64,000 nt of DNA, taken from contig DAIPXZ010000001.1 of assembly GCA_036782995.1 (NCBI GenBank), forward strand, positions 1 to 64,000, in the 5' to 3' direction. How positions within the stretch are numbered: position 1 is the first letter of the stretch; each line of letters opens with the position of its first letter. Source of the DNA: Bacillota bacterium. Its GTDB lineage: Bacteria > Bacillota > Clostridia > Saccharofermentanales > Saccharofermentanaceae. A model generated the notes under the pieces. That model was not told where the DNA came from. It did not search any database and saw only the letters and a program-made list of their open reading frames with translations. Positions 8,218 to 62,522 of this stretch are shown piece by piece. The position numbers were made by a program, and so were the translations under genes.

Positions 8218-9551
8218 GAAATGGCCTCAATAATGGTTTGCGCCATGTAATCAATCATGGCGTCCGTCATGCCCGGATAGACTCCGACCCAGAAGGTGTC
8301 ATTCATGATTTGGTCAGTGACAGAAAGGTCGCCGACGACGCGATAGCCTTCGCCGCTCTTTCTCATCTCGTCAAAGCAAGGGTGACGGGTGAGGTTGCCG
8401 GCAAACAGCATTCTTGTCTGTACGCCCTTCTTTTCTACGTATTGGACGACTTCATTTCTCGAAACGCCCGGTTTGCAAGTAATCAGGAATCCGAACCAGC
8501 TCGGGTCGGCGTTTTCAGCAGCAACCGGCAGAATGAGCTTATCTTCGTAAGGAAGGAGCGCCGCCTTTAGGCGTTTGAAGTTCTCTTTTCTCTTCTCGAC
8601 AAAGGTCGGGAATTTCTGAAGCTGTGCGCATCCGATTGCCGCCTGCATATCAGTGGCTTTGAGGTTATATCCAAAATGAGAATAGACATACTTGTGGTCG
8701 TAACCAAGCGGCAGCTCACCGTATTGCTTGTCAAAGCGATGGCCGCAAAGATTATCCATACCAGACGGGCATACGCAATCACGGCCCCAGTCACGCATGG
8801 AGCGGGCAATCTTATTGAGAAGCGGATCATTAGTGTATACGGCACCGCCCTCACCCATAGTCATGTGATGCGGCGGGTAGAAGCTCGATGTGCCGATATC
8901 ACCGATGGTTCCTGTGAAATATTCTTTTCCGTCGAGCGTGTACTTAGAGCCTAAGGCGTCGCAGTTGTCTTCGACGAGGAAGAGGTTATGCTTTACACAG
9001 AAAGCCTTGACGGAAGCAAGGTCAAACGGATTGCCGAGTGTGTGAGCAATCATGACGGCCTTTGTTTTCGGAGAAAGGGCCTTCTCGAGCATTTCAACAT
9101 CGATATTATATTGCGGAATGGTAAGGTCAACGAATACCGGAATTGCACCATATTGAATCATTGGTGTAACGGTTGTCGGGAAGCCGGCAGCCACTGTGAT
9201 TACTTCGTCACCGCGCTTTACAGCACGTTCGCCGAGAAGCGGCGAGGTCAAGGTCATGAATGCAATAAGGTTCGCAGAGGAACCGGAATTTACCAGCGAG
9301 CAGTACTTGATGCCAAGATAGTTGGCGAGTTTCTTTTCAAATTCATCGGTATAGCGACCGGATGTGAGCCAGAATTCGAGCGAAGAATCGACAAGATTGA
9401 GCATTTCGTCGCTGTTATATACTCGGGAAGCATACGGAATGCGGTTCCCCGGAGTAAAGGGCGGTTTTTGATTGTGATAAGTATCACAGTACTCCTTCAC
9501 CATCTCGAGAATGGATTCTTTTGCTTGTTGTTCTGACATGTTTTCAAACAT
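8214..9551 (-). CDS. rfbH: CDP-4-keto-6-deoxy-D-glucose 3-dehydrase (E1), RfbH/DdhC, DegT/DnrJ/EryC1 family
   Basis: 445 aa. IPYASRVYNSDEMLNLVDSSLEFWLTSGRYTDEFEKKLANYLG...SLVNSGSSANL...VEDNCDALGSKY is the RfbH pattern. Confidence 0.9.
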   Translation of the reverse strand: MFENMSEQQAKESILEMVKEYCDTYHNQKPPFTPGNRIPYASRVYNSDEMLNLVDSSLEFWLTSGRYTDEFEKKLANYLGIKYCSLVNSGSSANLIAFMTLTSPLLGERAVKRGDEVITVAAGFPTTVTPMIQYGAIPVFVDLTIPQYNIDVEMLEKALSPKTKAVMIAHTLGNPFDLASVKAFCVKHNLFLVEDNCDALGSKYTLDGKEYFTGTIGDIGTSSFYPPHHMTMGEGGAVYTNDPLLNKIARSMRDWGRDCVCPSGMDNLCGHRFDKQYGELPLGYDHKYVYSHFGYNLKATDMQAAIGCAQLQKFPTFVEKRKENFKRLKAALLPYEDKLILPVAAENADPSWFGFLITCKPGVSRNEVVQYVEKKGVQTRMLFAGNLTRHPCFDEMRKSGEGYRVVGDLSVTDQIMNDTFWVGVYPGMTDAMIDYMAQTIIEAIS

Positions 9552-10626
9552 GGTTATTCTCCTCCCAATCGGCGGTAAATGCCGAAATTTGTTGATTCAT
9601 TATTTCATTGACGGATTGACCGTCACGATAGACCTTTGCCCATTCGACAGAAGCCGATACAGCCTCGTTAATATGCCATGTTGGCTTCCAGCCGAAAGTC
9701 TTCTTAATCTTTGAGCAATCGAGCTTCAGGAAGTTCGCCTCATGCGGGCCGCCCACAAATTGGTTCTCCCATGTCATGCCCTCGCCCCACGCGTCGCAGA
9801 ACAGATTGACCAAATCGCCGGTTGTGACACAATCGCAATCGTCTGGTCCTACATTATAGTAGTCGGCAAAAGACTTATCTTCATACTGTTTCTTTGCAAT
9901 GAGCAAATAGGTAAAAAGCGGCTCGAGGACATGCTGATATGGCCTTGTCGAATGTGGATTACGCACGACGATGGCATGCTTTGCCAAGGCAGCGCGGATA
10001 GAGTCCGGGATGATGCGGTCGACGGCAAAATCACCGCCGCCAATGACATTACCTGCACGTGCCGTCGAAATCGCAACGTCACGATCGGCAAAAAAAGACA
10101 ATTTGTAGCTATGTGTGACGAGCTCCGAACAGGATTTACTGTTCGAATACGGATCAAATCCGTCGAGCGGGTCAATTTCACGATAGCCCCATTCCCATTC
10201 GTTGTTATGGTAGACCTTATCCGTCGTAACATTCAAAAAGGACTGCACCGTATCGCTCATACGAACACATTCCAAAATATTGACCGTGCCCATGACGTTC
10301 ACTTCGTATGTATATGCGGGGCGAACGTAAGAGTCACGAACAATCGGCTGTGCCGCCATGTGAATGACGATTTCCGGTTTTGCCGCCTGAAAAGCCTTTG
10401 AAAGAGCATCTGTATCGCGGATATCTCCGATGACAGAAGTCATTTTTTCATCAAGCTCGAGCATGCTAAATAAAGACGGCTCCGTCGGCGGATTCAGTGA
10501 ATATCCGGTCAATTCGGCGCCTGCGTCGACCAATATCTTCGAGAGCCACGCGCCCTTAAATCCGGTGTGTCCAGTCAGGAACACTCTTTTCCCTCTGTAA
10601 AAATCCAGCATTACCATGTTTTCCAT
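9544..10626 (-). CDS. rfbG: CDP-glucose 4,6-dehydratase
   Basis: FYRGKRVFLTGHTGFKGAWLSKIL...NVTTDKVY... The start is ambiguous (ATG 10626 or 10617) and either choice overlaps the rfbF 3' end. Confidence 0.9.
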   Translation of the reverse strand: MENMVMLDFYRGKRVFLTGHTGFKGAWLSKILVDAGAELTGYSLNPPTEPSLFSMLELDEKMTSVIGDIRDTDALSKAFQAAKPEIVIHMAAQPIVRDSYVRPAYTYEVNVMGTVNILECVRMSDTVQSFLNVTTDKVYHNNEWEWGYREIDPLDGFDPYSNSKSCSELVTHSYKLSFFADRDVAISTARAGNVIGGGDFAVDRIIPDSIRAALAKHAIVVRNPHSTRPYQHVLEPLFTYLLIAKKQYEDKSFADYYNVGPDDCDCVTTGDLVNLFCDAWGEGMTWENQFVGGPHEANFLKLDCSKIKKTFGWKPTWHINEAVSASVEWAKVYRDGQSVNEIMNQQISAFTADWEENNHV

Positions 10627-49067: not shown

Positions 49068-50534
49068 TTACAACACCGGCTTTTCGAGTGCATTCTCCAA
49101 TGCATCGATGATGATCTCGATGGTTTTTACGCGGGCATAAAGCTTATCATTGCCTTCAATAATATGCCAGGGCGCATATTCCGTCGATGTTTTCTGTAGC
49201 ATATCATTGACGGCCTCTTCGTATGCATCCCATTTCTCGCGGTTACGCCAATCTTCGTCTGTGATCTTCCATTGCTTTTCAGGTGTTTCTTGGCGTTCGT
49301 TGAAACGAGCAAGCTGGACGTCTTTATCAATTTGAAGCCAAAATTTTATCACGATTGTGCCTTCCGATGCCAACTGATATTCAAATTCATTCATTTCACG
49401 GTAGGCGCGTTTCCATTCCTTTTGATCGCAAAAGCCTTCTATGCGTTCTACCATAACACGCCCGTACCACGTACGGTCAAAAAGTGCTATATGCCCGGTT
49501 TTCGGCATTTTCTCCCAGAAACGCCATAAATAATGGCGATTCTTTTCTGGTGGGGTCGGCGATGCAACAGGATTTACTTCATATCCGCGTGCATCGAGTG
49601 CTTGCGTCACGCGTTTTATGGCACCACCCTTCCCTGCTGCGTCCCATCCTTCAAAAAGCAAGACGACGGGGATGTGGCGGGCGTAGATGTGATTATGAAG
49701 CTCACGCAGACGTTTCTGATCCTTTTTCAGACGCTCCTCGTAGTCTTCGCGGGGTAGCGCAAGAGATAGGTCAACCTCGTGTAGAAGCGGCATAGATATC
49801 GGCTTCGGGAGTTTCGGTACATATTTTGCAACCGCTTTCTTGTCGATTCCGTTGTGCAAACGATCGGAGATGGCGTCGATTAAATAGCGAAGTGCGTAGA
49901 ATTCACTGATAAGTGGTTTTTTCGCTTCGATAACATGCCATGGAGCAAAAGGCGAATCCGTCTTTTCCATTATTTCTTGGTAAGCCGCCTTAACTTCGCA
50001 ATAGTTCTTCGCTTCCCATGCATCATGCTCTGAAACCCGCCATGCGGTTGCTTGGTCAGCGAGCAGGCGATTGAGTCTGCATTTCTGTTCATCTTCATCG
50101 ATATTCAGGAAGATTTTCACTAAAAGATATCCGTTTTCAGTCAATGACCGCTCAAATTGCTTAACAAATTCGATACGACGCTTATATGTATCTGACGTGA
50201 TGCTTCGTTCCAAATTTGAAGTAGCTAGAATTGACGGCCATCCGCTATCTAGGAACGTGAACTTTCCTTGTTCAGGAATGGTTCGAAAATAGCGATAAAG
50301 AAAGTGTCTTCTCGTTTCTTCCGGACTCGGACGATCCATAGAACAGACGCGATAAAAGCGCGGATCGATACAAGTAATTAAGCGATTAATCAATGAACCC
50401 TTGCCCGATGCGGCAAAGCCTTCCACGAGAACAAATACTGAAATCCCCGCCTTTTTGATTTCCTGTTGTAGAGTAAGGAGTTCTCCTTGCATTTCTGAAA
50501 TTTCTGCCTTCATCTGCTTTTTTTCTTCACGCAT
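49068..50534 (-). CDS. tandem-domain PPK2-family polyphosphate:nucleotide phosphotransferase
   Basis: Two PPK2 repeats, each with a P-loop-like motif (VLVEGFAASGKGS and LLFEGWDAAGKGG). Start at ATG 50534, behind AAGGAGG. It overlaps the upstream gene stop (ATGCGTGA). Confidence 0.85.
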   Translation of the reverse strand: MREEKKQMKAEISEMQGELLTLQQEIKKAGISVFVLVEGFAASGKGSLINRLITCIDPRFYRVCSMDRPSPEETRRHFLYRYFRTIPEQGKFTFLDSGWPSILATSNLERSITSDTYKRRIEFVKQFERSLTENGYLLVKIFLNIDEDEQKCRLNRLLADQATAWRVSEHDAWEAKNYCEVKAAYQEIMEKTDSPFAPWHVIEAKKPLISEFYALRYLIDAISDRLHNGIDKKAVAKYVPKLPKPISMPLLHEVDLSLALPREDYEERLKKDQKRLRELHNHIYARHIPVVLLFEGWDAAGKGGAIKRVTQALDARGYEVNPVASPTPPEKNRHYLWRFWEKMPKTGHIALFDRTWYGRVMVERIEGFCDQKEWKRAYREMNEFEYQLASEGTIVIKFWLQIDKDVQLARFNERQETPEKQWKITDEDWRNREKWDAYEEAVNDMLQKTSTEYAPWHIIEGNDKLYARVKTIEIIIDALENALEKPVL

Positions 50535-51678
50535 ACGATTGTACCTCCTTGTACTTCTCATCGACTCGATTCATTAATTCGAGTTCATCAAGGATTTCCC
50601 CTTGATATGGGTACGTATTCCTCATGCTCTCGAATTGTTCACGTATGTTTTGGGCGTCATTCGTATTATTGTCCTCGAGTAACGCCTTCGCATATTGATA
50701 GCGCAAAACGGTAGGATTTTCCTTCATCTTCTGAATGAAGTCCATTGTTGTTTTTGATAAAAAAGAGTTCCGTTCATCTTTGGGCTGTTCGGTAAGCAAT
50801 GAAAGGTAGGTTAACTCCATATCGATAAAGGCACCTATTATTCCGCTTCTTGGTATCTCCGTATGATTATGAAGCCACTTTAGTTTTTCATAAGCTTCAT
50901 CTAATCGACCATTGATGATGTAATAGCAACAACTGTTTACGTATTGCGTGGTAATTATTGCTGTCGTCATCTCTTTTTCCGTAGGAAAAAAGTAATTGGC
51001 TTCGTCTATATCTTTCATGCGAGCATCTTCAGCGTATTCCGCAAGTGTAATCATCTGTGTGTAGAATACACGAATCATCAATGGGTTACGTTTACAGGCC
51101 AAGATATTCGCTCCGTCGTTATTCAACATTTTGCCGGAAAACGGAATGCCATTTATTACGGCAGGAATCAACGCCATTGCCGCAGCAGTGATAAAAAACG
51201 CACGGCTAATCGGTGCAATCGGCAAGAGACAGAGTCCGCCAAATATACCGGCACACAACATGTTCATGAGCACTCCGCCGAGTTGATAAAGATTAATCGG
51301 ATTTTTTCCGTTCTCTTGATATAGCGGTGGTTTCATTAAGCATTGACCCGCCGTTCCGGTAAGCTTATATTTCTTGATCGCGAGCTTTCCATTCTTCTTT
51401 ATCCAAACAGTATTGTATACTCGGAAGCTTATAAAAGAATATCCGGAAATCAAGCCCGCAAACAAGTGTCCTAGTTCATGGAGAACAAGTTGAATATTAT
51501 ACAAAACAATGCTGACCATACAAAAGACAAGCGTAACCAAGAAACCATGTGTTCCAATAGAATTCGGATATGCCCCCTTTATGATCGCATTGATTATCAT
51601 CATCGAGCCAAAGTAGATGATTACCAATATTGTGCATATAAGAAAACAATTCACTGCATTGATTTTCTTTGATTCCAT
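50527..51678 (-). CDS. M50/site-2-protease-like polytopic membrane protein with a helical soluble C-terminal domain
   Basis: HELGH at aa 67-71 sits at the end of a TM helix, and a later NNDGANIL resembles the second M50 motif. It has 4-5 TM helices and then ~170 aa of helical, TPR-like sequence. Confidence 0.55.
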   Translation of the reverse strand: MESKKINAVNCFLICTILVIIYFGSMMIINAIIKGAYPNSIGTHGFLVTLVFCMVSIVLYNIQLVLHELGHLFAGLISGYSFISFRVYNTVWIKKNGKLAIKKYKLTGTAGQCLMKPPLYQENGKNPINLYQLGGVLMNMLCAGIFGGLCLLPIAPISRAFFITAAAMALIPAVINGIPFSGKMLNNDGANILACKRNPLMIRVFYTQMITLAEYAEDARMKDIDEANYFFPTEKEMTTAIITTQYVNSCCYYIINGRLDEAYEKLKWLHNHTEIPRSGIIGAFIDMELTYLSLLTEQPKDERNSFLSKTTMDFIQKMKENPTVLRYQYAKALLEDNNTNDAQNIREQFESMRNTYPYQGEILDELELMNRVDEKYKEVQSYA

Positions 51679-51714: not shown

Positions 51715-53187
51715 TTATTCGGAAGACGCATCGGAGGTCGTTTTTTTGAACGGGGAGGGTCCTTCACTGTCAAATTCGGGAATATCCTCCAATCCGATTT
51801 CCAACGCAACGTCCATCGCCGATTTTGCCGGAGCTTTAGGGATATTGCTTCCAAGACTACGATCCGTTGCCGGGAAGAAGCCGGAGCCTCTTCCGAGCTG
51901 TTGACTACGTGCTTGATCAATGGATAGATAGATTTCCGAATGCTTTTCGGGGAGAGGTACAGGGGCACTCGGAATGTTGACTTGCCTTTCCAAGGCAAAT
52001 TTATCACTGTCAACACCATGATACGCTTCTTCAACATTTTTTTGATTTACAACAACCTTGGCTGGCGCAACACGTACATTTCTTTCCATGCGAATCAGAA
52101 CCTTGTCCACAGCATTTTCATTCATCGCTATATCGATTAATGCAGACGAGTTCGGAATGTCGAGGTATGCACGGCATTCCGAAGGACGATAGATGGGGCG
52201 TGAAGACGCAATCCTTCCGTTAACCGCATTCATCAGCCAATGGAATGGCTTTCCCTTCACAGTAGTTTTTATCTGCCAATAAGGGAAGTAGGTTAAGATG
52301 CCAAGGCTTTCCTCGTATTTCGACTGGTCGACATAGGACACAACCGCCGATTCTTTTTCTTCCTCACTAACCCAGATGCCGCGCACCCACAGCTTGATAT
52401 GGGCAATTAAATCATCCATGATTTCCTGACCCGACCGGTTAGGCATGACGAAAATAGCGTTATTCTTATCGACCGAATCAAAGTCTTTGCTCATCGAAAA
52501 GGAATATGGGCCAATATCATCAAACGAATCGTTACTGATATAGTCCGAAGCAGGGATTGGGATGTCGTTAAAGCGGAATTGTCCTCCGACATTTCGATCG
52601 ACATAATAACCATCTGTCGAAGACATCGGACGCATAATAGCCGTGTTCTCGACTCTCTTTTGGTTATCATTTTTGTACGTTGTAGGTACTTTTTCAGCCA
52701 AATTCTTGGTGACAATCGCACTGGTAAATGCTTCATAATCAAAGATATAAACAGGCAAGTACGTTTTCACCATCATTTCAGCGAGCTTGGTGTATTTTCC
52801 GGAAAGAAAGAACTTTTCCTTCATGGATTTTTCAAAAGCTTCCTTCGCTTCGTTCGCATCGACGTAAAATGGTACGATTTGTTGAGCCTTGGGAAAAGGG
52901 TGTTGTTTATTGTCGACCTTCGGCACTCTTTCTTTTCCGCAAACAATACAGGTCGAACGGGCGGAAGATAAATCCGTTTCCGAAAACATTATCGTCTTAC
53001 ATTGAGGACACTCATAAGAATAATAATCTCGCAACGCGCTGTATTCCGGGAAATAAAAACCACCGTCTACCTTTTCCACTTGATTCTCTGGCAAAAGCGG
53101 CGTATGACAAAACACGCATTCGTATTTATCGTGCGTGTTTGTAATAACATTAGCATGACATTTGGGGCATGCAAACGCAATATCCAT
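51715..53187 (-). CDS. double zinc-ribbon protein, uncharacterised family (short paralog, 490 aa)
   Basis: MDIAFACPKC...KYECVFCHT is the first 4-Cys ribbon and YECPQC...CIVCG the second. It shares blocks with the upstream gene. AGGAG SD. No TM or signal peptide. Confidence 0.7.
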   Translation of the reverse strand: MDIAFACPKCHANVITNTHDKYECVFCHTPLLPENQVEKVDGGFYFPEYSALRDYYSYECPQCKTIMFSETDLSSARSTCIVCGKERVPKVDNKQHPFPKAQQIVPFYVDANEAKEAFEKSMKEKFFLSGKYTKLAEMMVKTYLPVYIFDYEAFTSAIVTKNLAEKVPTTYKNDNQKRVENTAIMRPMSSTDGYYVDRNVGGQFRFNDIPIPASDYISNDSFDDIGPYSFSMSKDFDSVDKNNAIFVMPNRSGQEIMDDLIAHIKLWVRGIWVSEEEKESAVVSYVDQSKYEESLGILTYFPYWQIKTTVKGKPFHWLMNAVNGRIASSRPIYRPSECRAYLDIPNSSALIDIAMNENAVDKVLIRMERNVRVAPAKVVVNQKNVEEAYHGVDSDKFALERQVNIPSAPVPLPEKHSEIYLSIDQARSQQLGRGSGFFPATDRSLGSNIPKAPAKSAMDVALEIGLEDIPEFDSEGPSPFKKTTSDASSE

Positions 53188-53256: not shown

Positions 53257-56200
53257 TTATCTTTCCCGTCTTATCGGTTTCTTGGCAAATGGGCTTGGTC
53301 CATTCGGATCAAACTTCGGAATATCGCTTAACGAACGACGAGCCGCCGCTTCCTCTTCAACGATTCCTTTGCGAATTGGATCCATTCCGCCATATGCTAG
53401 CGATGGGATCGGTCGTTCGCCGCCGTATCTTGGTAATCCTTCATCCTCAGGCGGTCGTGTACCCGTGGCGACCGGTTGTGCTGTTTCTTGCAAAGTTGTT
53501 CCTGTCGGATGTTCTGTCAAATTGCTCTCTTCTACTGTTCTGCTACCAGGACGCAGCATCACCGCAGCCATGTTTGTATTCTCCACATTGATGGTCGATT
53601 CTTTTACCGAAAATGCCGGCAGAACTTCTTCGTCCTGTTCGCGATTGCTTTCTTCGACGTCAGCCGTATGAATGGTCATCGGTACCGAGCGTGTATACTC
53701 AACCGGTTCTTCAACGGGCTGTTCCGCCTTTGGAGCAAATACGGGCGCATCCTCACTTGATGCTTTGAAAGCCGCTTGGACATTGGCCTGACGTGCCGCT
53801 TCTTCTAATGCGCGTCTCTCGCGATATGTGCGTGGACGATCGCTCGAGAATGTAATTGGAGAAGATTCATCCTCGGTGCCACGAACAGAAGTATTTACTG
53901 TTTCATCGAGCGTCGTATTCGGACGTAATGCTGAACCCGGACGTGTTGCGGCCGGTTCATTTGCGGAGGACGAAGAAGTCGATGGCTGTTTATCTTCGTC
54001 AATCGTTAACTCTTCCTTCTGATGTAATGGCATTTCTCCACCGCGGCTTGTTGCTGAATGATCGGCAGCAGCAAGAACACTATTGTTTCTCGGTTTTTCA
54101 ACATTAATTACGATATCTTGTGGCTTTGCAAAACGAGGTTTCGTATCTTCTGGTTCAGGCAATCCCGTTGATGGTGATGCCCATGTCGGAATCGGTCGAT
54201 CACTACGAATTGAACGCTCCCAAATCGGTACGGACTTCGAAGAATTCTCTTCTTGGCTTCTATGTCCACGCATGGCAGGACCACTAGTTGCTTGTGCCGC
54301 CGTCGTTGACGCTTGCGTTTCTTCCTGTGATACGCTTCTGCGCGATGCAAAAGGAGAAATCGAATCTTCCGGTCTTCCCCATGTCGGAGGCGGCGTAATT
54401 GCAGATGAAAGAGGACTACGGCTTACGGAAGACGTATCCGTTTTTGGAGTCGAAGGTGCATTGGTTGCTACCGTCGGACGGCTCGTCGTGGAATCACTAC
54501 GCGTTGACGTTCCAGGACGAGAAGCTGCCCCCGGTCGCGTCGCAGCAACGGATTCACGTGATGTCGTCGGTTCTGATGCCGAAGTCGCTTGCACTGGAGC
54601 TTTATGTTGTAATGTCGAATCTTGTGATGCCGGCACAGACATATTCGGGCGTGGCGGACGCTTTATCTGTCCGTTTTGACCAACAGTTGTAGCGGACGCA
54701 CTTGTTTTTTTTGCCCAGTCGGGTGTCTCTCCCGCTGGCATTTCACCCCAAATTGGTTTGCGTGGCATATGAATTGAATCATCTTCTGATGGTGTTGAAA
54801 CAGAACGAGCCATTTGCGCAAGCGGAGATGGTTCACGCGGAGCAAGAGGCTTCGAAACAGGCTTCGGTGTTGGCAAGACATCTTCGTCTTTCTCAACCAT
54901 AGGAAGTGGCATGTGCTTTTCTTCTTCGATAATCGGAGCCTTCTTCTCCATGAAAGAAAGAGAAAGGTGTTGCTCTTCCTTTTCAAACGTATCAGCGCCG
55001 ACAGGTGTCACTTCTTCCTTCATCGGGAGTGGTTGTGATGTTGTTTTCGGTGTCGTGGCTTTCTTGGCCTGCAAAACGATATCATCCGCTTTCTCAACCG
55101 CCGATTTAGTCTTACGTGACTTATCGGGTACGATATCATCCGCAGATTCAACGATGCCCTTCTTGGTAGTCGACTTTAATGAATCATCGGTATCATTGTC
55201 TGCACGTGATACAGTAGTCGTCGCGTTTTTCTCTTCCGTACTCGGTTGTTCCATCGCGGCTTCACGACGCTTCAGCTCTCTAAGTGCGCTGAGTGGCAAG
55301 GAATTGATTGTCTCGGCATCCAAATCAGCAAGAGTCAAGCCATCCAGATTCATCAATGGAGATGCTATTTGCGTAGACTGTACATCCGACATATTCGAAA
55401 TATATGCGGACTCCCACGCTGGATGGTTTTGTTCCATAGTCTTCGACGAGGAAAGAGTCGATGCCGGAGCTTGAACGGCTTCGATTGGTTGCTCTTCTTC
55501 ACCATTCACCTTCGCCTTCATGCTGGATACTTTCTTTTCCGGAACATGTGCACCAAATGCGTTCACGCTTGCGTCTTGCGGGCGATCCCATACCGGTACC
55601 TGTGTTTCTTTTTTCTCGATGGCAGGCTTCTTTGTTCGAACGGTACGATTGCTGTTTGGAACAGCGACCTCCGTCGGCTTCGAGTTCTTCGCCCACGCCG
55701 GTGCTTCCACTGCAGCTTTCATCTCGCCCGGATTTTCCTTGGCTGCTGCTTTAATGGCAGCTGGTCGAGTAATCGGTTCCAGTTTCTTTTTCTGAGGCAT
55801 CTTCGTTAAATCGCTAATATTGGTCACAATCGGAATATCAAGAAGTGGCGCACCCTCTGGGCGATTTGCCGCTTCAGCACGACGTTTTTCCATTGCCTCA
55901 GCGCGTTTCTTCGCCTCTTCATCTGCCTTAATGTCTGCCTCCGTTGCGGTGTGAACCATCAACTGCGCATCAAAATCATCCGGCTTCTTTGGTTTTCTTG
56001 TTTTCGGCTTCTCAAAGAAGGAGTAATCAAGAATTTCGTGCGCTGGATTATATAGATCGAACTCAAAGTGTGTGTCCTTCAATGCCGTACAGCGGTCCAT
56101 ATTGGCATATTCGTGATATCCGGTCTTGTCATTTTGTGATGCGACCTTCGCCATCGGAATATTTGCCTCGACGACACCGTTTTGAGCATTCATGGCATAG

Positions 56201-57183
56201 TGGAACTCTCTTCCTAAGTATTCGCCTCGCATAGCCCAAATCGGTAAGAGGACAAGTTCTCCGATACCAAGTGGATAATCGGTCTTATCAGAATAGAAGG
56301 AAATATCGTATTGCACAGAATGTGCGTCATATATCATTTGACGGGTCCATTTCTTGATGCGCCCCATGAACTCTTGCATCATTGAAATCGCATCTTTATA
56401 TGTCGCTACGACCGGAACATCACCCAATGCCGTTGTCGTAACCGGGACCATCTTAGAAAAATCATATGGTTGAATGTTGCGAACCGTATTGTCAGGTAAA
56501 CATCCAGTCGCGTCAAAAGGTACGCCCATCCATGATAAAACACCACCTGTGATTCTTTCGGTCGGTAGTTCCTGCGTCTCTTTGACACCGCGAAGGCTAT
56601 TATTAATCTTTTTAAAAGAAGAACGAAGCGGCATCATCAGCTCTTTTAATTGTTCCGGAGCCGCCGTGTCCAAGATTGATTGCGTAGGAATATGCTTCAA
56701 CATTGCGGTGAGTCGCACGTTCGCTAATACTTCGTAGTTAAATATCCAACACGGAACATAGACCTTCTTTAGAAGGGCCTTGTTCTCATCAGTTACCAGT
56801 GCACGTCCGACAGCCGAGTTATTTCGACAGTATTCTTCAAAAACGCTTTCCGCTTTTTGTCGATTGTAGGAAAACAGAATCATTCGACGTGGCATCGCCC
56901 CTAGCGCCGGGCCCTTATCCGTAAGCTTCGAAACACCACAAAGTGGGCAATCCATCTTTTGACCATCTGCTACTCTTGCGAATACCTGACCACCGCATTC
57001 TTCACAGGTAAATGAATGATAAGCCTTTTCGTCCCATGCTTCACTAACGTAATATCCGCCTTCCAATTCAAGAACTTCATCTGCCGGTGTTAAATCGGTA
57101 TGGCAAAAACAGCAACGATATTTCTTCGACTCATCAAAAATCAAATCCGCCGAGCAATTCGGACAATGAAATGCTATATCCAT
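53257..57183 (-). CDS. double zinc-ribbon protein, uncharacterised family (long paralog, 1308 aa, with a ~915-aa disordered C-terminal region)
   Basis: The start is set at MDIAFHCPNC (ATG 57183) by homology with the paralog and an upstream AGGAGG. The two ribbons are CPNC...CCFC and CEEC...CPLC. From about aa 421 of the track ORF the sequence is low-complexity and rich in P/S/T/A/E/K. Confidence 0.7.
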   Translation of the reverse strand: MDIAFHCPNCSADLIFDESKKYRCCFCHTDLTPADEVLELEGGYYVSEAWDEKAYHSFTCEECGGQVFARVADGQKMDCPLCGVSKLTDKGPALGAMPRRMILFSYNRQKAESVFEEYCRNNSAVGRALVTDENKALLKKVYVPCWIFNYEVLANVRLTAMLKHIPTQSILDTAAPEQLKELMMPLRSSFKKINNSLRGVKETQELPTERITGGVLSWMGVPFDATGCLPDNTVRNIQPYDFSKMVPVTTTALGDVPVVATYKDAISMMQEFMGRIKKWTRQMIYDAHSVQYDISFYSDKTDYPLGIGELVLLPIWAMRGEYLGREFHYAMNAQNGVVEANIPMAKVASQNDKTGYHEYANMDRCTALKDTHFEFDLYNPAHEILDYSFFEKPKTRKPKKPDDFDAQLMVHTATEADIKADEEAKKRAEAMEKRRAEAANRPEGAPLLDIPIVTNISDLTKMPQKKKLEPITRPAAIKAAAKENPGEMKAAVEAPAWAKNSKPTEVAVPNSNRTVRTKKPAIEKKETQVPVWDRPQDASVNAFGAHVPEKKVSSMKAKVNGEEEQPIEAVQAPASTLSSSKTMEQNHPAWESAYISNMSDVQSTQIASPLMNLDGLTLADLDAETINSLPLSALRELKRREAAMEQPSTEEKNATTTVSRADNDTDDSLKSTTKKGIVESADDIVPDKSRKTKSAVEKADDIVLQAKKATTPKTTSQPLPMKEEVTPVGADTFEKEEQHLSLSFMEKKAPIIEEEKHMPLPMVEKDEDVLPTPKPVSKPLAPREPSPLAQMARSVSTPSEDDSIHMPRKPIWGEMPAGETPDWAKKTSASATTVGQNGQIKRPPRPNMSVPASQDSTLQHKAPVQATSASEPTTSRESVAATRPGAASRPGTSTRSDSTTSRPTVATNAPSTPKTDTSSVSRSPLSSAITPPPTWGRPEDSISPFASRRSVSQEETQASTTAAQATSGPAMRGHRSQEENSSKSVPIWERSIRSDRPIPTWASPSTGLPEPEDTKPRFAKPQDIVINVEKPRNNSVLAAADHSATSRGGEMPLHQKEELTIDEDKQPSTSSSSANEPAATRPGSALRPNTTLDETVNTSVRGTEDESSPITFSSDRPRTYRERRALEEAARQANVQAAFKASSEDAPVFAPKAEQPVEEPVEYTRSVPMTIHTADVEESNREQDEEVLPAFSVKESTINVENTNMAAVMLRPGSRTVEESNLTEHPTGTTLQETAQPVATGTRPPEDEGLPRYGGERPIPSLAYGGMDPIRKGIVEEEAAARRSLSDIPKFDPNGPSPFAKKPIRRER

Positions 57184-57275
57184 GTTGGGTTTATCCCTCC
57201 TGTCGCGAAAGCGTGATCGCCTTACTGAGGCCTTCGCTAACGATATCTCTACTAGAGCAATTATAGTCAAACTAT

Positions 57276-57304
57276 AATATAAAGGGTGAACGGATTATTG
57301 TCAA
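57276..57304 (-). promoter_or_regulatory. near-consensus promoter TTGACA-17-TATATT upstream of the zinc-ribbon operon
   Basis: Minus strand reads aataaTTGACAataatccgttcaccctTTATATTatag. The -35 is at 57299-57304 and the -10 at 57276-57281, about 90 nt before ATG 57183. Confidence 0.45.
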
Positions 57305-61411: not shown

Positions 61412-62383
61412 TTATTCCTCCCGATTTCGAACATAGACTAGTTTGATTTGTGGATTTTTATCATTTGTACGGTGCTCATATTCGACCCAGTCGAGAGATT
61501 GTACCATTTTGGACATTTTTGCGAACCCGTAGTTTCTGGAATCAAATGACGGGCTCTTCTTATTGATGAGGTTACCGACATCTCCCAAGAAGGCCCAGCC
61601 CTCTTCATCTGCCAGATCAGCGATTGAAGAAGCAATCAATTCAATCGTCGCTTCGTCAATTTTGAGAATGGAACGTTCCTCATCTTTGACGATAAAGCCT
61701 GTCGAGGATTCTCTTTCGGCGATATCGGATGTATTCTCTTTATCGTCTTTGTCCTTTTTCGTCTTGCGTGACGTCTTTAATGAGCGTTTGGTCGCTTTTA
61801 CGGCATTCTTTCCCACTGTAGCTTCTGATTTAGCAGAAACAGAATCGTTCGTGGATTGCTTCACTTCAGTTTTATCAACGTCTTTGCTCTTCACGGTCTT
61901 CATCAACAGACCGAGACGTCCCGGCACAGGGCTTTTGCGCGTGTGCGTTTCCAGAATCTCAAGGAAAATGAAGCGATCACAAGCGGCAACGAAAGCCGTC
62001 GGCGTTTTCTTTTCACCAATACCATATACTATTTTTCCTGCTTCACGAAGGCGTGTCGCGAGTCGCGTGAAGTCGCTGTCGCTCGAAACAAGGCAGAAGC
62101 CATCGACCTTTTCCGTATACAATATATCCATTGCATCAATGATGAGTGTCGAGTCCGTCGCATTCTTTCCCGTCGTATAACCAAATTGCTGTACAGGCGA
62201 AATAGCGTGATCCAAAAGGACCGTTTTCCATGGGCCAAGCTGGGGTTTTGTCCAGTCTCCGTATATTCTTTTGATTGTAGGATTGCCATATCGAGCGATT
62301 TCAAGCATCATGGGTTTGATGTAATTCGCGGAGATATTGTCCGCGTCAATCAAAACTGCCAGACGCACGTCTTTTCCGGCCAT
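61412..62383 (-). CDS. NYN (LabA-like) domain protein with a C-terminal OST-HTH/LOTUS domain
   Basis: VRLAVLIDADNISANYI...KNATDSTLIIDAMD...LVSSDSDFTRLATRLREAGK (NYN), a Lys-rich linker, then WAFLGDVGNLINKKSPSFDSRNYGFAKMSKMV (LOTUS-like). Start at ATG 62383, behind GAGGAAGG. Confidence 0.8.
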   Translation of the reverse strand: MAGKDVRLAVLIDADNISANYIKPMMLEIARYGNPTIKRIYGDWTKPQLGPWKTVLLDHAISPVQQFGYTTGKNATDSTLIIDAMDILYTEKVDGFCLVSSDSDFTRLATRLREAGKIVYGIGEKKTPTAFVAACDRFIFLEILETHTRKSPVPGRLGLLMKTVKSKDVDKTEVKQSTNDSVSAKSEATVGKNAVKATKRSLKTSRKTKKDKDDKENTSDIAERESSTGFIVKDEERSILKIDEATIELIASSIADLADEEGWAFLGDVGNLINKKSPSFDSRNYGFAKMSKMVQSLDWVEYEHRTNDKNPQIKLVYVRNREE

Positions 62384-62522
62384 AATTCCTTCCTCTCTTC
62401 TTGCCATAATCAATACTAGGCTGATATAATAGGCAAGTTGCGCGAGTATTGTTTTGCGCCACATTTAATTATAACGTAATTTAGTTTTCTTGCCCACACC
62501 GATAACGAAAGAGGCCTGACTC

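Follow-up and report, generated by a model that had tools for sequence, protein, structure and literature searches.

To our knowledge, few bacterial proteins have very long disordered regions that are conserved, and bacterial linear-motif biology is known from a handful of cases: RNase E, FtsZ, SSB and McdB. The C-terminal scaffold of RNase E, the linker and terminal peptide of FtsZ and the tail of SSB share one plan, in which a folded head is followed by a variable linker and partner-recruiting peptides. In McdB, cargo association is mediated by an invariant Trp of a C-terminal motif, which also affects how condensates form (PMC11321042). In GW182/TNRC6, isolated Trp of a long disordered region, with small residues on either side, insert into pockets of Argonaute; pairs of them about 10 residues apart are bivalent, and multiple modules make the binding multivalent (bioRxiv 10.1101/2025.10.18.683247). 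GW182-type scaffolds engage W-pockets of CCR4-NOT as well. Here we describe two adjacent genes, the long and the short paralog, of a Bacillota bacterium from the Saccharofermentanaceae (assembly GCA_036782995.1). They lie in the stretch that was analysed, hereafter the window, which comprises positions 1 to 64,000 of contig DAIPXZ010000001.1. The long paralog carries, behind a folded head, a tail that is predicted to be disordered and in which paired Trp motifs are conserved. The parts concerned, by window position and strand, are:

53257..57183 (-): long paralog, coding sequence of 1308 residues, with two zinc ribbons, an α+β core and a tail of about 917 residues predicted to be disordered
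56134..57183 (-): folded N-terminal domain (head) of the long paralog, residues 1 to about 350, zinc ribbons plus an α+β core ending in MNAQNG
53260..56010 (-): tail of the long paralog, residues 392-1308, disordered as judged by AlphaFold2 (AF2) confidence (predicted local distance difference test, pLDDT), FoldIndex and low column conservation
51715..53187 (-): short paralog, 490 residues, with an N-terminal domain of the long paralog's type, a polar tail of about 140 residues without Trp, and C-terminal motif IPEFDSEGPSPF at 51748-51783

An earlier reading of this DNA, made from the sequence alone (the sequence-only reading), had singled out 53260..56010, which corresponds to residues 392-1308 (917 residues) of the long paralog, and had stated that every Trp in it sits in a P-x-W motif. 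This was confirmed: the region holds exactly eight Trp, 8/8 occur as P-x-W, and all eight pentamers are as that reading listed them, namely PAWAK (Trp at 497), PVWDR (532), PAWES (590), PIWGE (812), PDWAK (823), PTWGR (935), PIWER (988) and PTWAS (1001). With Pro at 10.6% of the tail, the binomial probability of 8/8 P-x-W is 1.6e-8, and the P-x-W count never exceeded 5 in 20,000 composition-preserving shuffles of the tail. Pro stands at -2 for 8 of 209 Trp (3.8%) in the 40 other open reading frames of the window, and for one of the five Trp in the folded N-terminal domain of the long paralog itself. Given the shuffle maximum and the window background, a chance origin of the P-x-W array is excluded.

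Conservation was assessed in an alignment of 42 orthologs, all from metagenome-assembled genomes (MAGs) of herbivore-gut or rumen Clostridia. A protein search of 5.8 billion sequences yielded 30 clusters of 1294-1458 residues with the same architecture, and an alignment-based scan of GTDB species genomes yielded 25 loci with the same architecture; a scan of the genome collection with the single protein as query gave no match. Carriers are labelled as Clostridiales, Oscillospiraceae, 'Mageeibacillus sp. UBA' and Ca. Scatonaster (placed in Saccharofermentanaceae). Mean column conservation is 0.51 in the tail vs 0.83 in the head, and conserved islands hold 160 of 918 tail residues (17%). Six of the eight Trp (497, 532, 812, 823, 988 and 1001) are 100% conserved and stand in near-invariant flanks, which read as the consensus sequences listed below, with NKP[LI]WE[KR] as the fuller form around W532. 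W590 and W935 are lineage-specific, and other orthologs have extra P-x-W of their own at non-aligned positions.

55669..55701 (-): motif 1, PAWAKNSKPTE (W497), consensus PSWAKAVTPPP; W and Pro at -2 100% in the 42 sequences, island mean 0.97
55582..55602 (-): motif 2, QVPVWDR (W532), consensus NKPLWEK; 35-41 residues past motif 1 in all orthologs
54706..54756 (-): bipartite module A, PIWGEMPAGETPDWAKK (W812 and W823), consensus RWGEMPEAxETPSWAKP; both Trp 100%
54175..54231 (-): bipartite module B, VPIWERSIRSDRPIPTWAS (W988 and W1001), consensus VPIWERVPETDGPxPAWG; VPIWER 93-100% per position
55414..55422 (-): PAW (W590), unconserved and lineage-specific; W column 0.24
54379..54387 (-): PTW (W935), inside PTWGRPEDSISPF, a lineage-specific extra; W column 0.14

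The spacing of the conserved Trp is fixed within the two modules. From W812 to W823 it is 12 residues in 41 of the 42 orthologs, against 11 in the window protein, and W988 and W1001 are 13 apart in 40 of 42. W497 and W532 form a loose pair, 35-41 residues apart across orthologs, and the remaining inter-Trp intervals range from 81 to 440 residues. Modules A and B fit the common pattern W-x-x-[MVIL]-P-E-x(3-6)-P-x-W, which had 0 occurrences in 20,000 shuffles. One ortholog (L003, protein P0011) has three additional W...W modules, WSRPAEGDGPAW, WNRPPEIEQPDW and WSRPSEHHAQQRNSW, so species differ in how many modules they carry. At conserved sites, orthologs use different synonymous Pro codons (CCG, CCA, CCT, CCC); a DNA-level origin of the CCN-NNN-TGG pattern was rejected for this reason, and selection therefore acts on the protein.

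The sequence-only reading had also pointed to two short internal repeats. Both are present: AATRPGAASRP / AATRPGSALRP at residues 880 and 1078 (23/33 nucleotides identical), and ESADDIVP / EKADDIVL at residues 679 and 697 (16/24 nucleotides identical). Neither is conserved, ATRPG being found in 8/42 orthologs and ADD[IVL]V in 1/42, and both were rejected as functional motifs.

Composition and a hydropathy scan bear out the description of the tail as P/S/T/A/E/K-rich and free of hydrophobic core segments. It is rich in A, P, S, E, T and K, order-promoting residues make up only 20%, and the best 21-residue Kyte-Doolittle window is <=0.65. The 917 residues include 124 K+R, 137 D+E, 8 W, 12 F and 5 Y. 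FoldIndex (charge-hydropathy) is below 0 at 85% of residues past residue 350. AF2 modelling covered residues 1-1200, and thus not the C-terminal peptide, with a 133-sequence alignment including distant superfamily members; pLDDT was below 50 for 721 of about 830 tail residues modelled, essentially all in residues 373-1200. The exceptions are three isolated helices (residues 419-439, 623-644 and 1120-1141), and pLDDT is barely above 50 at W497 and W823-K825. AF2 leaves the tail unfolded, and the tail is predicted to be disordered. Together with the ortholog conservation, the predicted lack of a fold in the tail supports the proposal that this is an array of short linear motifs and not random low complexity; neither outcome that the sequence-only reading had named as fatal to it, a region predicted to fold or motifs missing or unconserved in orthologs, was seen.

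55867..55929 (-): predicted isolated charged helix, residues 419-439, AF2 pLDDT about 75
55252..55317 (-): predicted isolated helix, residues 623-644, AF2 pLDDT about 75
53761..53835 (-): conserved predicted helix, residues about 1117-1141 (PRTYRERRALEEAARQANV...), AF2 helix 1120-1141 at pLDDT about 84, island mean 0.88

The tail ends in a conserved peptide that it shares with the short paralog:

53284..53328 (-): C-terminal motif SDIPKFDPNGPSPFA of the long paralog, clade consensus GLPDFDPDGPSPFK, near-invariant in all long orthologs

The peptide follows the pattern [DG][LIM]P[DEK][FY]DP.GP[SN]PF and is succeeded by basic residues. The short paralog of the window terminates in it as well, as do all 21 short orthologs that were recovered; the tails of these short proteins are free of Trp. 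The two paralogs align over residues 1-346 (25% identity, E=3e-38), and a second, separate alignment of the short paralog covers the last ~24 residues of the long protein. Across the same genome pairs the short paralog is 25-29% identical vs 55-61% for the long-paralog head, with the short C-terminal peptide still nearly invariant; a word-indexed search with the short paralog found no sequence besides itself. A distant relative, P0036, also ends in the peptide, after two hydrophobic segments; because two transmembrane (TM) segments separate them, its peptide lies on the same (cytoplasmic) side as its zinc-ribbon head. In 31 of 42 long orthologs a D-G-P-x-P-(x)-aromatic core is found twice, as DGP[VI]PAW in module B and as DGPSPF in the terminal peptide; about 2% of shuffles yield one such match. 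There are hints in these sequences that the W modules and the C-terminal peptide may be one ligand class.

The head places both paralogs in a large superfamily. Its zinc-ribbon Cys (C7/C10/C24/C27 and C60/C63/C79/C82, CxxC...CxxC twice) are invariant in 133 sequences. An AF2 run of the head with only 27 close orthologs gave a mean pLDDT of 49, and a rerun with superfamily representatives was used instead; pLDDT is about 90 for residues ~50-345, where helices pack on long β-hairpins. The head belongs to no Pfam or NCBIfam family, with zinc-ribbon matches below curated cut-offs only, and scans of both paralogs returned sub-threshold zinc-ribbon noise only (Pfam, NCBIfam) or no significant match (PADLOC, PHROGs). 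In a PDB search with the alignment profile, eS27-type zinc ribbons at E>0.08 were the only matches, and Foldseek of the head model against PDB found no match. The sole significant structural match is a Yasminevirus 'DnaJ-like subfamily C member 3' (A0A5K0UBJ7) in BFVD (Foldseek E=6e-7, 322 aligned columns, 12% identity, low TM-score). Among 1.84 billion representatives, the head profile detected 3632 relatives at E<=1e-3 and 1515 at E<=1e-10 (hmmsearch). The superfamily signature comprises the eight invariant Cys plus P144, P314 and N332, and members are typically 340-450 residues long.

A TM helix comes right behind the core end (...NGQTGK..G..P.S..K) in 137 of 146 superfamily members examined. 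In the long and short paralogs there is no hydrophobic segment where this helix would follow the NGQTG motif, and the pair appear to be soluble derivatives that lost it. In some superfamily members (P0038, P0097) a TPM (PF04536) domain and a Gly-rich tail of GGGGSF type come after the TM helix, and others have long polar tails there. The long paralog does not fit a surface protein with a P/T-rich wall-spanning region: it has a Cys4 zinc ribbon at its N-terminus and none of the Gram-positive wall protein features looked for (hydrophobic leader, LPxTG, TM).

Motif order and pair spacing are kept, the motifs are under protein-level purifying selection, and the TM anchor of the superfamily is absent. 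On balance we think that the long paralog is probably, though by no means certainly, a cytoplasmic multivalent scaffold or adaptor of Trp-anchored linear motifs. Its folded head would carry the ~900-residue disordered tail as a string of short linear motifs, each centred on a single Trp, typically P-x-W-[A/G/E]-[K/R], and arranged as one loose pair (W497/W532) and two bipartite modules; the tail would terminate in the acidic aromatic-proline peptide [LIM]P.[FY]D..GP.PF. A hydrophobic pocket on a folded partner would take up each Trp, the Trp pairs of fixed spacing would bind bivalently (avidity), and several modules would provide multivalency. The short paralog would be the monovalent counterpart, reaching the same hub via the common C-terminal peptide. 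Docking into pockets is suggested by the combination of invariant Trp and flanks, drifting linkers, fixed order and exact pair spacings on a chain predicted to be disordered. We infer pocket binding by the motifs, multivalency, and recognition of related sites by W modules and C-terminal peptide alike. A bolder version, which we regard as doubtful, sees in the two paralogs a bacterial 'Trp-hook' system not recognised before, in which a D-G-P-x-P-aromatic peptide present once in the short paralog was multiplied into W...W modules in the long one. The product would be a multivalent, possibly condensate-forming organiser of a cytoplasmic or membrane-proximal machine in Saccharofermentanaceae, GW182-like but independently evolved.

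Several results weigh against the scaffold proposal. In the ortholog tails Pro is at -2 for 238 of 312 Trp (76%), and most orthologs read xxRWGE at the W812 site, so without Pro at -2. The statement that every Trp is in P-x-W is true of the window protein only, and the invariant element is the Trp with its +1/+2 flank (A, G or E, then K or R, in the ortholog tails), not the Pro at -2. The sequence-only reading had suggested aligning orthologs for conserved P-x-W number and spacing amid drifting linkers; number and order are kept and the linkers drift, which speaks for that reading, though W590 and W935 are not conserved and the Pro at -2 is not invariant. The likeness of the W modules to the C-terminal peptide is short, and module B of the window protein itself has no DGP core. 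A metagenome scan for [FY]DPDGP[S/T]PF found it at the C-terminus of long and short family members only, its internal occurrences in unrelated open reading frames looking like chance, and a concatenated tail-island profile searched against the 5.8 billion proteins returned only C-terminal fragments of long orthologs. At the sensitivity used, the tail motifs are private to the family; they were found on no other protein and thus point to no partner by association. In the AF2 model of residues 1-1200, no tail motif docked confidently on the protein's own head. All carriers are uncultured MAGs.

This last modelling result also bears on the idea that W modules and C-terminal peptide have as their binding site the head of their own protein or of the short paralog, giving auto-inhibition or head-to-tail or hetero-oligomeric assemblies. 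We consider this unlikely: AF2 shows no confident packing, although the test is weak, as the model is without the C-terminal peptide and the tail alignment is shallow. Nevertheless, the peptide occurs only on proteins with a head of this subfamily (long, short and P0036), the two paralogs are always adjacent, and the head is confidently folded. We rate about as low the chance that the Trp (and Phe) are aromatic stickers driving homotypic or heterotypic phase separation, with no stoichiometric pocket docking. A long, low-hydrophobicity, mixed-charge intrinsically disordered region with sparse aromatics is what such stickers would sit in, and the invariant Trp of McdB correlates with condensate formation (PMC11321042). 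Against stickers, invariant flanks, fixed order and an exact 12-13-residue spacing are not normally needed for them, and the aromatic density is low (2.7%). Sticker behaviour is, moreover, compatible with the scaffold proposal as a downstream consequence of multivalency.

Two further accounts are less probable still. Trp prefers membrane interfaces, and Trp-Lys/Arg motifs could act as interfacial anchors at the cytoplasmic face of the membrane, replacing the lost TM. The 137 of 146 superfamily members with a TM after the core, set beside paralogs with none, and the frequent K or R at +2 of the Trp in ortholog tails would fit such anchoring. It is nonetheless improbable, since lipid partitioning needs neither strict flanks nor fixed pair spacing, acidic residues adjoin several conserved Trp (WER, WEK, WGE), about 6 Trp per 900 residues stand without a surrounding amphipathic helix, and the short paralog is also without a TM yet has no tail Trp. 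Least likely of all, in our estimate, is that the C-terminal peptide mimics that of FtsZ (D-I-P-x-F-L-R) and docks on an FtsA, SepF or EzrA-like receptor in a cell-division role, with the W modules recruiting further factors. The resemblance is visible in SDIPKF...KKPIRRER (long), EDIPEF...KK (short) and DLPDF...KPN(R) (orthologs), but the residue after F/Y is always Asp where FtsZ has Leu/Met, nothing in FtsZ corresponds to the conserved DP.GP.PF extension, the head has a zinc-ribbon domain in place of a tubulin fold, and no division genes are nearby.

The open frame of the long paralog spans 53257..57270 (-), and its start was assigned to the ATG at 57183. This is the real start because AGGAGG precedes it by 12 nt and the orthologs start with MEIAFHC, which is found at the equivalent position in all of them. 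Within the window, GC is highest (0.496) and AT skew strongest (-0.22) at positions 54001-56000, which coincide with the tail-coding region; the amino-acid composition of the tail is presumably the cause. Two signals precede the gene, and two further conserved islands lie in the tail:

57196-57201 (-): ribosome-binding site AGGAGG of the long gene, a consensus match
57276..57304 (-): promoter-like site TTGACA-17-TATATT, 5' of the long gene, judged on 11/12 consensus matches only
54811..54858 (-): conserved Pro/Arg island VSKPLAPREPSPLAQM, consensus NNRPLAxRPPAPLAR
54085..54144 (-): conserved island TKPRFAKPQDIVINVEKPRN, consensus ERPRLMKPKDQIIDVEKPRE, mean 0.86

Most orthologs have two copies of the Pro/Arg island, and in ortholog tails a third P[AS]LAR lies about 35 residues ahead of the C-terminal peptide; a run of RP repeats is close by. 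The Pro/Arg island is a possible second motif class.

The gene order NYN/LOTUS, GH77, FGGY kinase, AEC transporter, long paralog, short paralog, GH1 (reverse) and GT4 is kept in essentially all loci, and the long-short tandem is present in every related locus that reaches the downstream gene. The NYN/LOTUS gene (61412-62464, (-)), a NYN ribonuclease-like domain fused to OST-HTH/LOTUS, is conserved in all relatives, where it borders the syntenic block. At 49068-51678 (-), downstream of the short paralog, are a 383-residue polytopic membrane protein with HELGH (HExxH), which has no family match in Pfam, NCBIfam, PADLOC or PHROGs, and a two-domain PPK2, whose start the membrane protein overlaps. 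The two genes were rejected as parts of the system, being inserted only in this genome and absent from all relatives; in all related loci, GH1 and GT4 directly follow the short paralog. In relatives a ~363-residue opposite-strand gene with a GNAT-like C-terminus separates the long gene from the AEC transporter (8764-9855 (-) in locus L001, equivalent elsewhere). The window is without it, the gap between transporter and long gene being only ~157 bp. The carbohydrate-metabolism and transport neighbours give no functional clue, and literature searches turned up nothing relevant on a P-x-W motif or on tail-anchored zinc-ribbon proteins in bacteria.

The family is a clean natural example of a tail in which linkers drift while six Trp, their flanks, their order and two spacings are fixed, and the adjacent short paralog is a built-in 'one-motif' control. 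Restriction to uncultured bacteria limits immediate testability. If docking into pockets is false, this is still a well-defined uncharacterised family of uncultured rumen bacteria. If it is true, the long paralog would be a bacterial counterpart of the eukaryotic Trp-hook scaffolds, and the first functional handle would be gained on a zinc-ribbon membrane-protein superfamily of >3600 clusters that has no Pfam, NCBIfam or solved-structure match.

Compared with GW182/TNRC6, the window protein likewise has invariant Trp, drifting linkers and Trp pairs fixed at 12-13 residues, but the two are not homologous, the flanks here read P-x-W-[AGE]-[KR] and not GW/WG, the host is bacterial, neither Argonaute nor any other known W-pocket protein is linked to it, and no Argonaute is in the window neighbourhood; the comparison is an analogy only. 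McdB is likewise bacterial and largely disordered, with an invariant Trp. McdB, however, has one C-terminal Trp, the McdA ATPase and microcompartments, vs six paired conserved Trp and a zinc-ribbon head here, and no ParA-like or bacterial microcompartment genes are in the long-paralog neighbourhood. The RNase E, FtsZ and SSB hubs resemble it in the folded head, the long variable linker and the acidic aromatic terminal peptide, whereas the tail here is far longer (~900 residues) and its motifs are Trp-centred and resemble none of the peptides of those hubs. The free C-terminal ...IPF of the SSB tip also has no equivalent, as PF is followed by 1-9 more residues (K/KPN/KKPIRRER) in all long and short sequences. 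The N-terminal 350 residues are homologous to the double zinc ribbon, α/β core and C-terminal TM superfamily of Bacillota, from which the long and short paralogs differ in having polar tails instead of the TM, with W motifs in the long paralog only. A disordered linear-motif scaffold is a known kind of protein; the motif class, the scale of the disordered region in a bacterium, the paired Trp, the monovalent paralog and the uncharacterised head together fit no described family.

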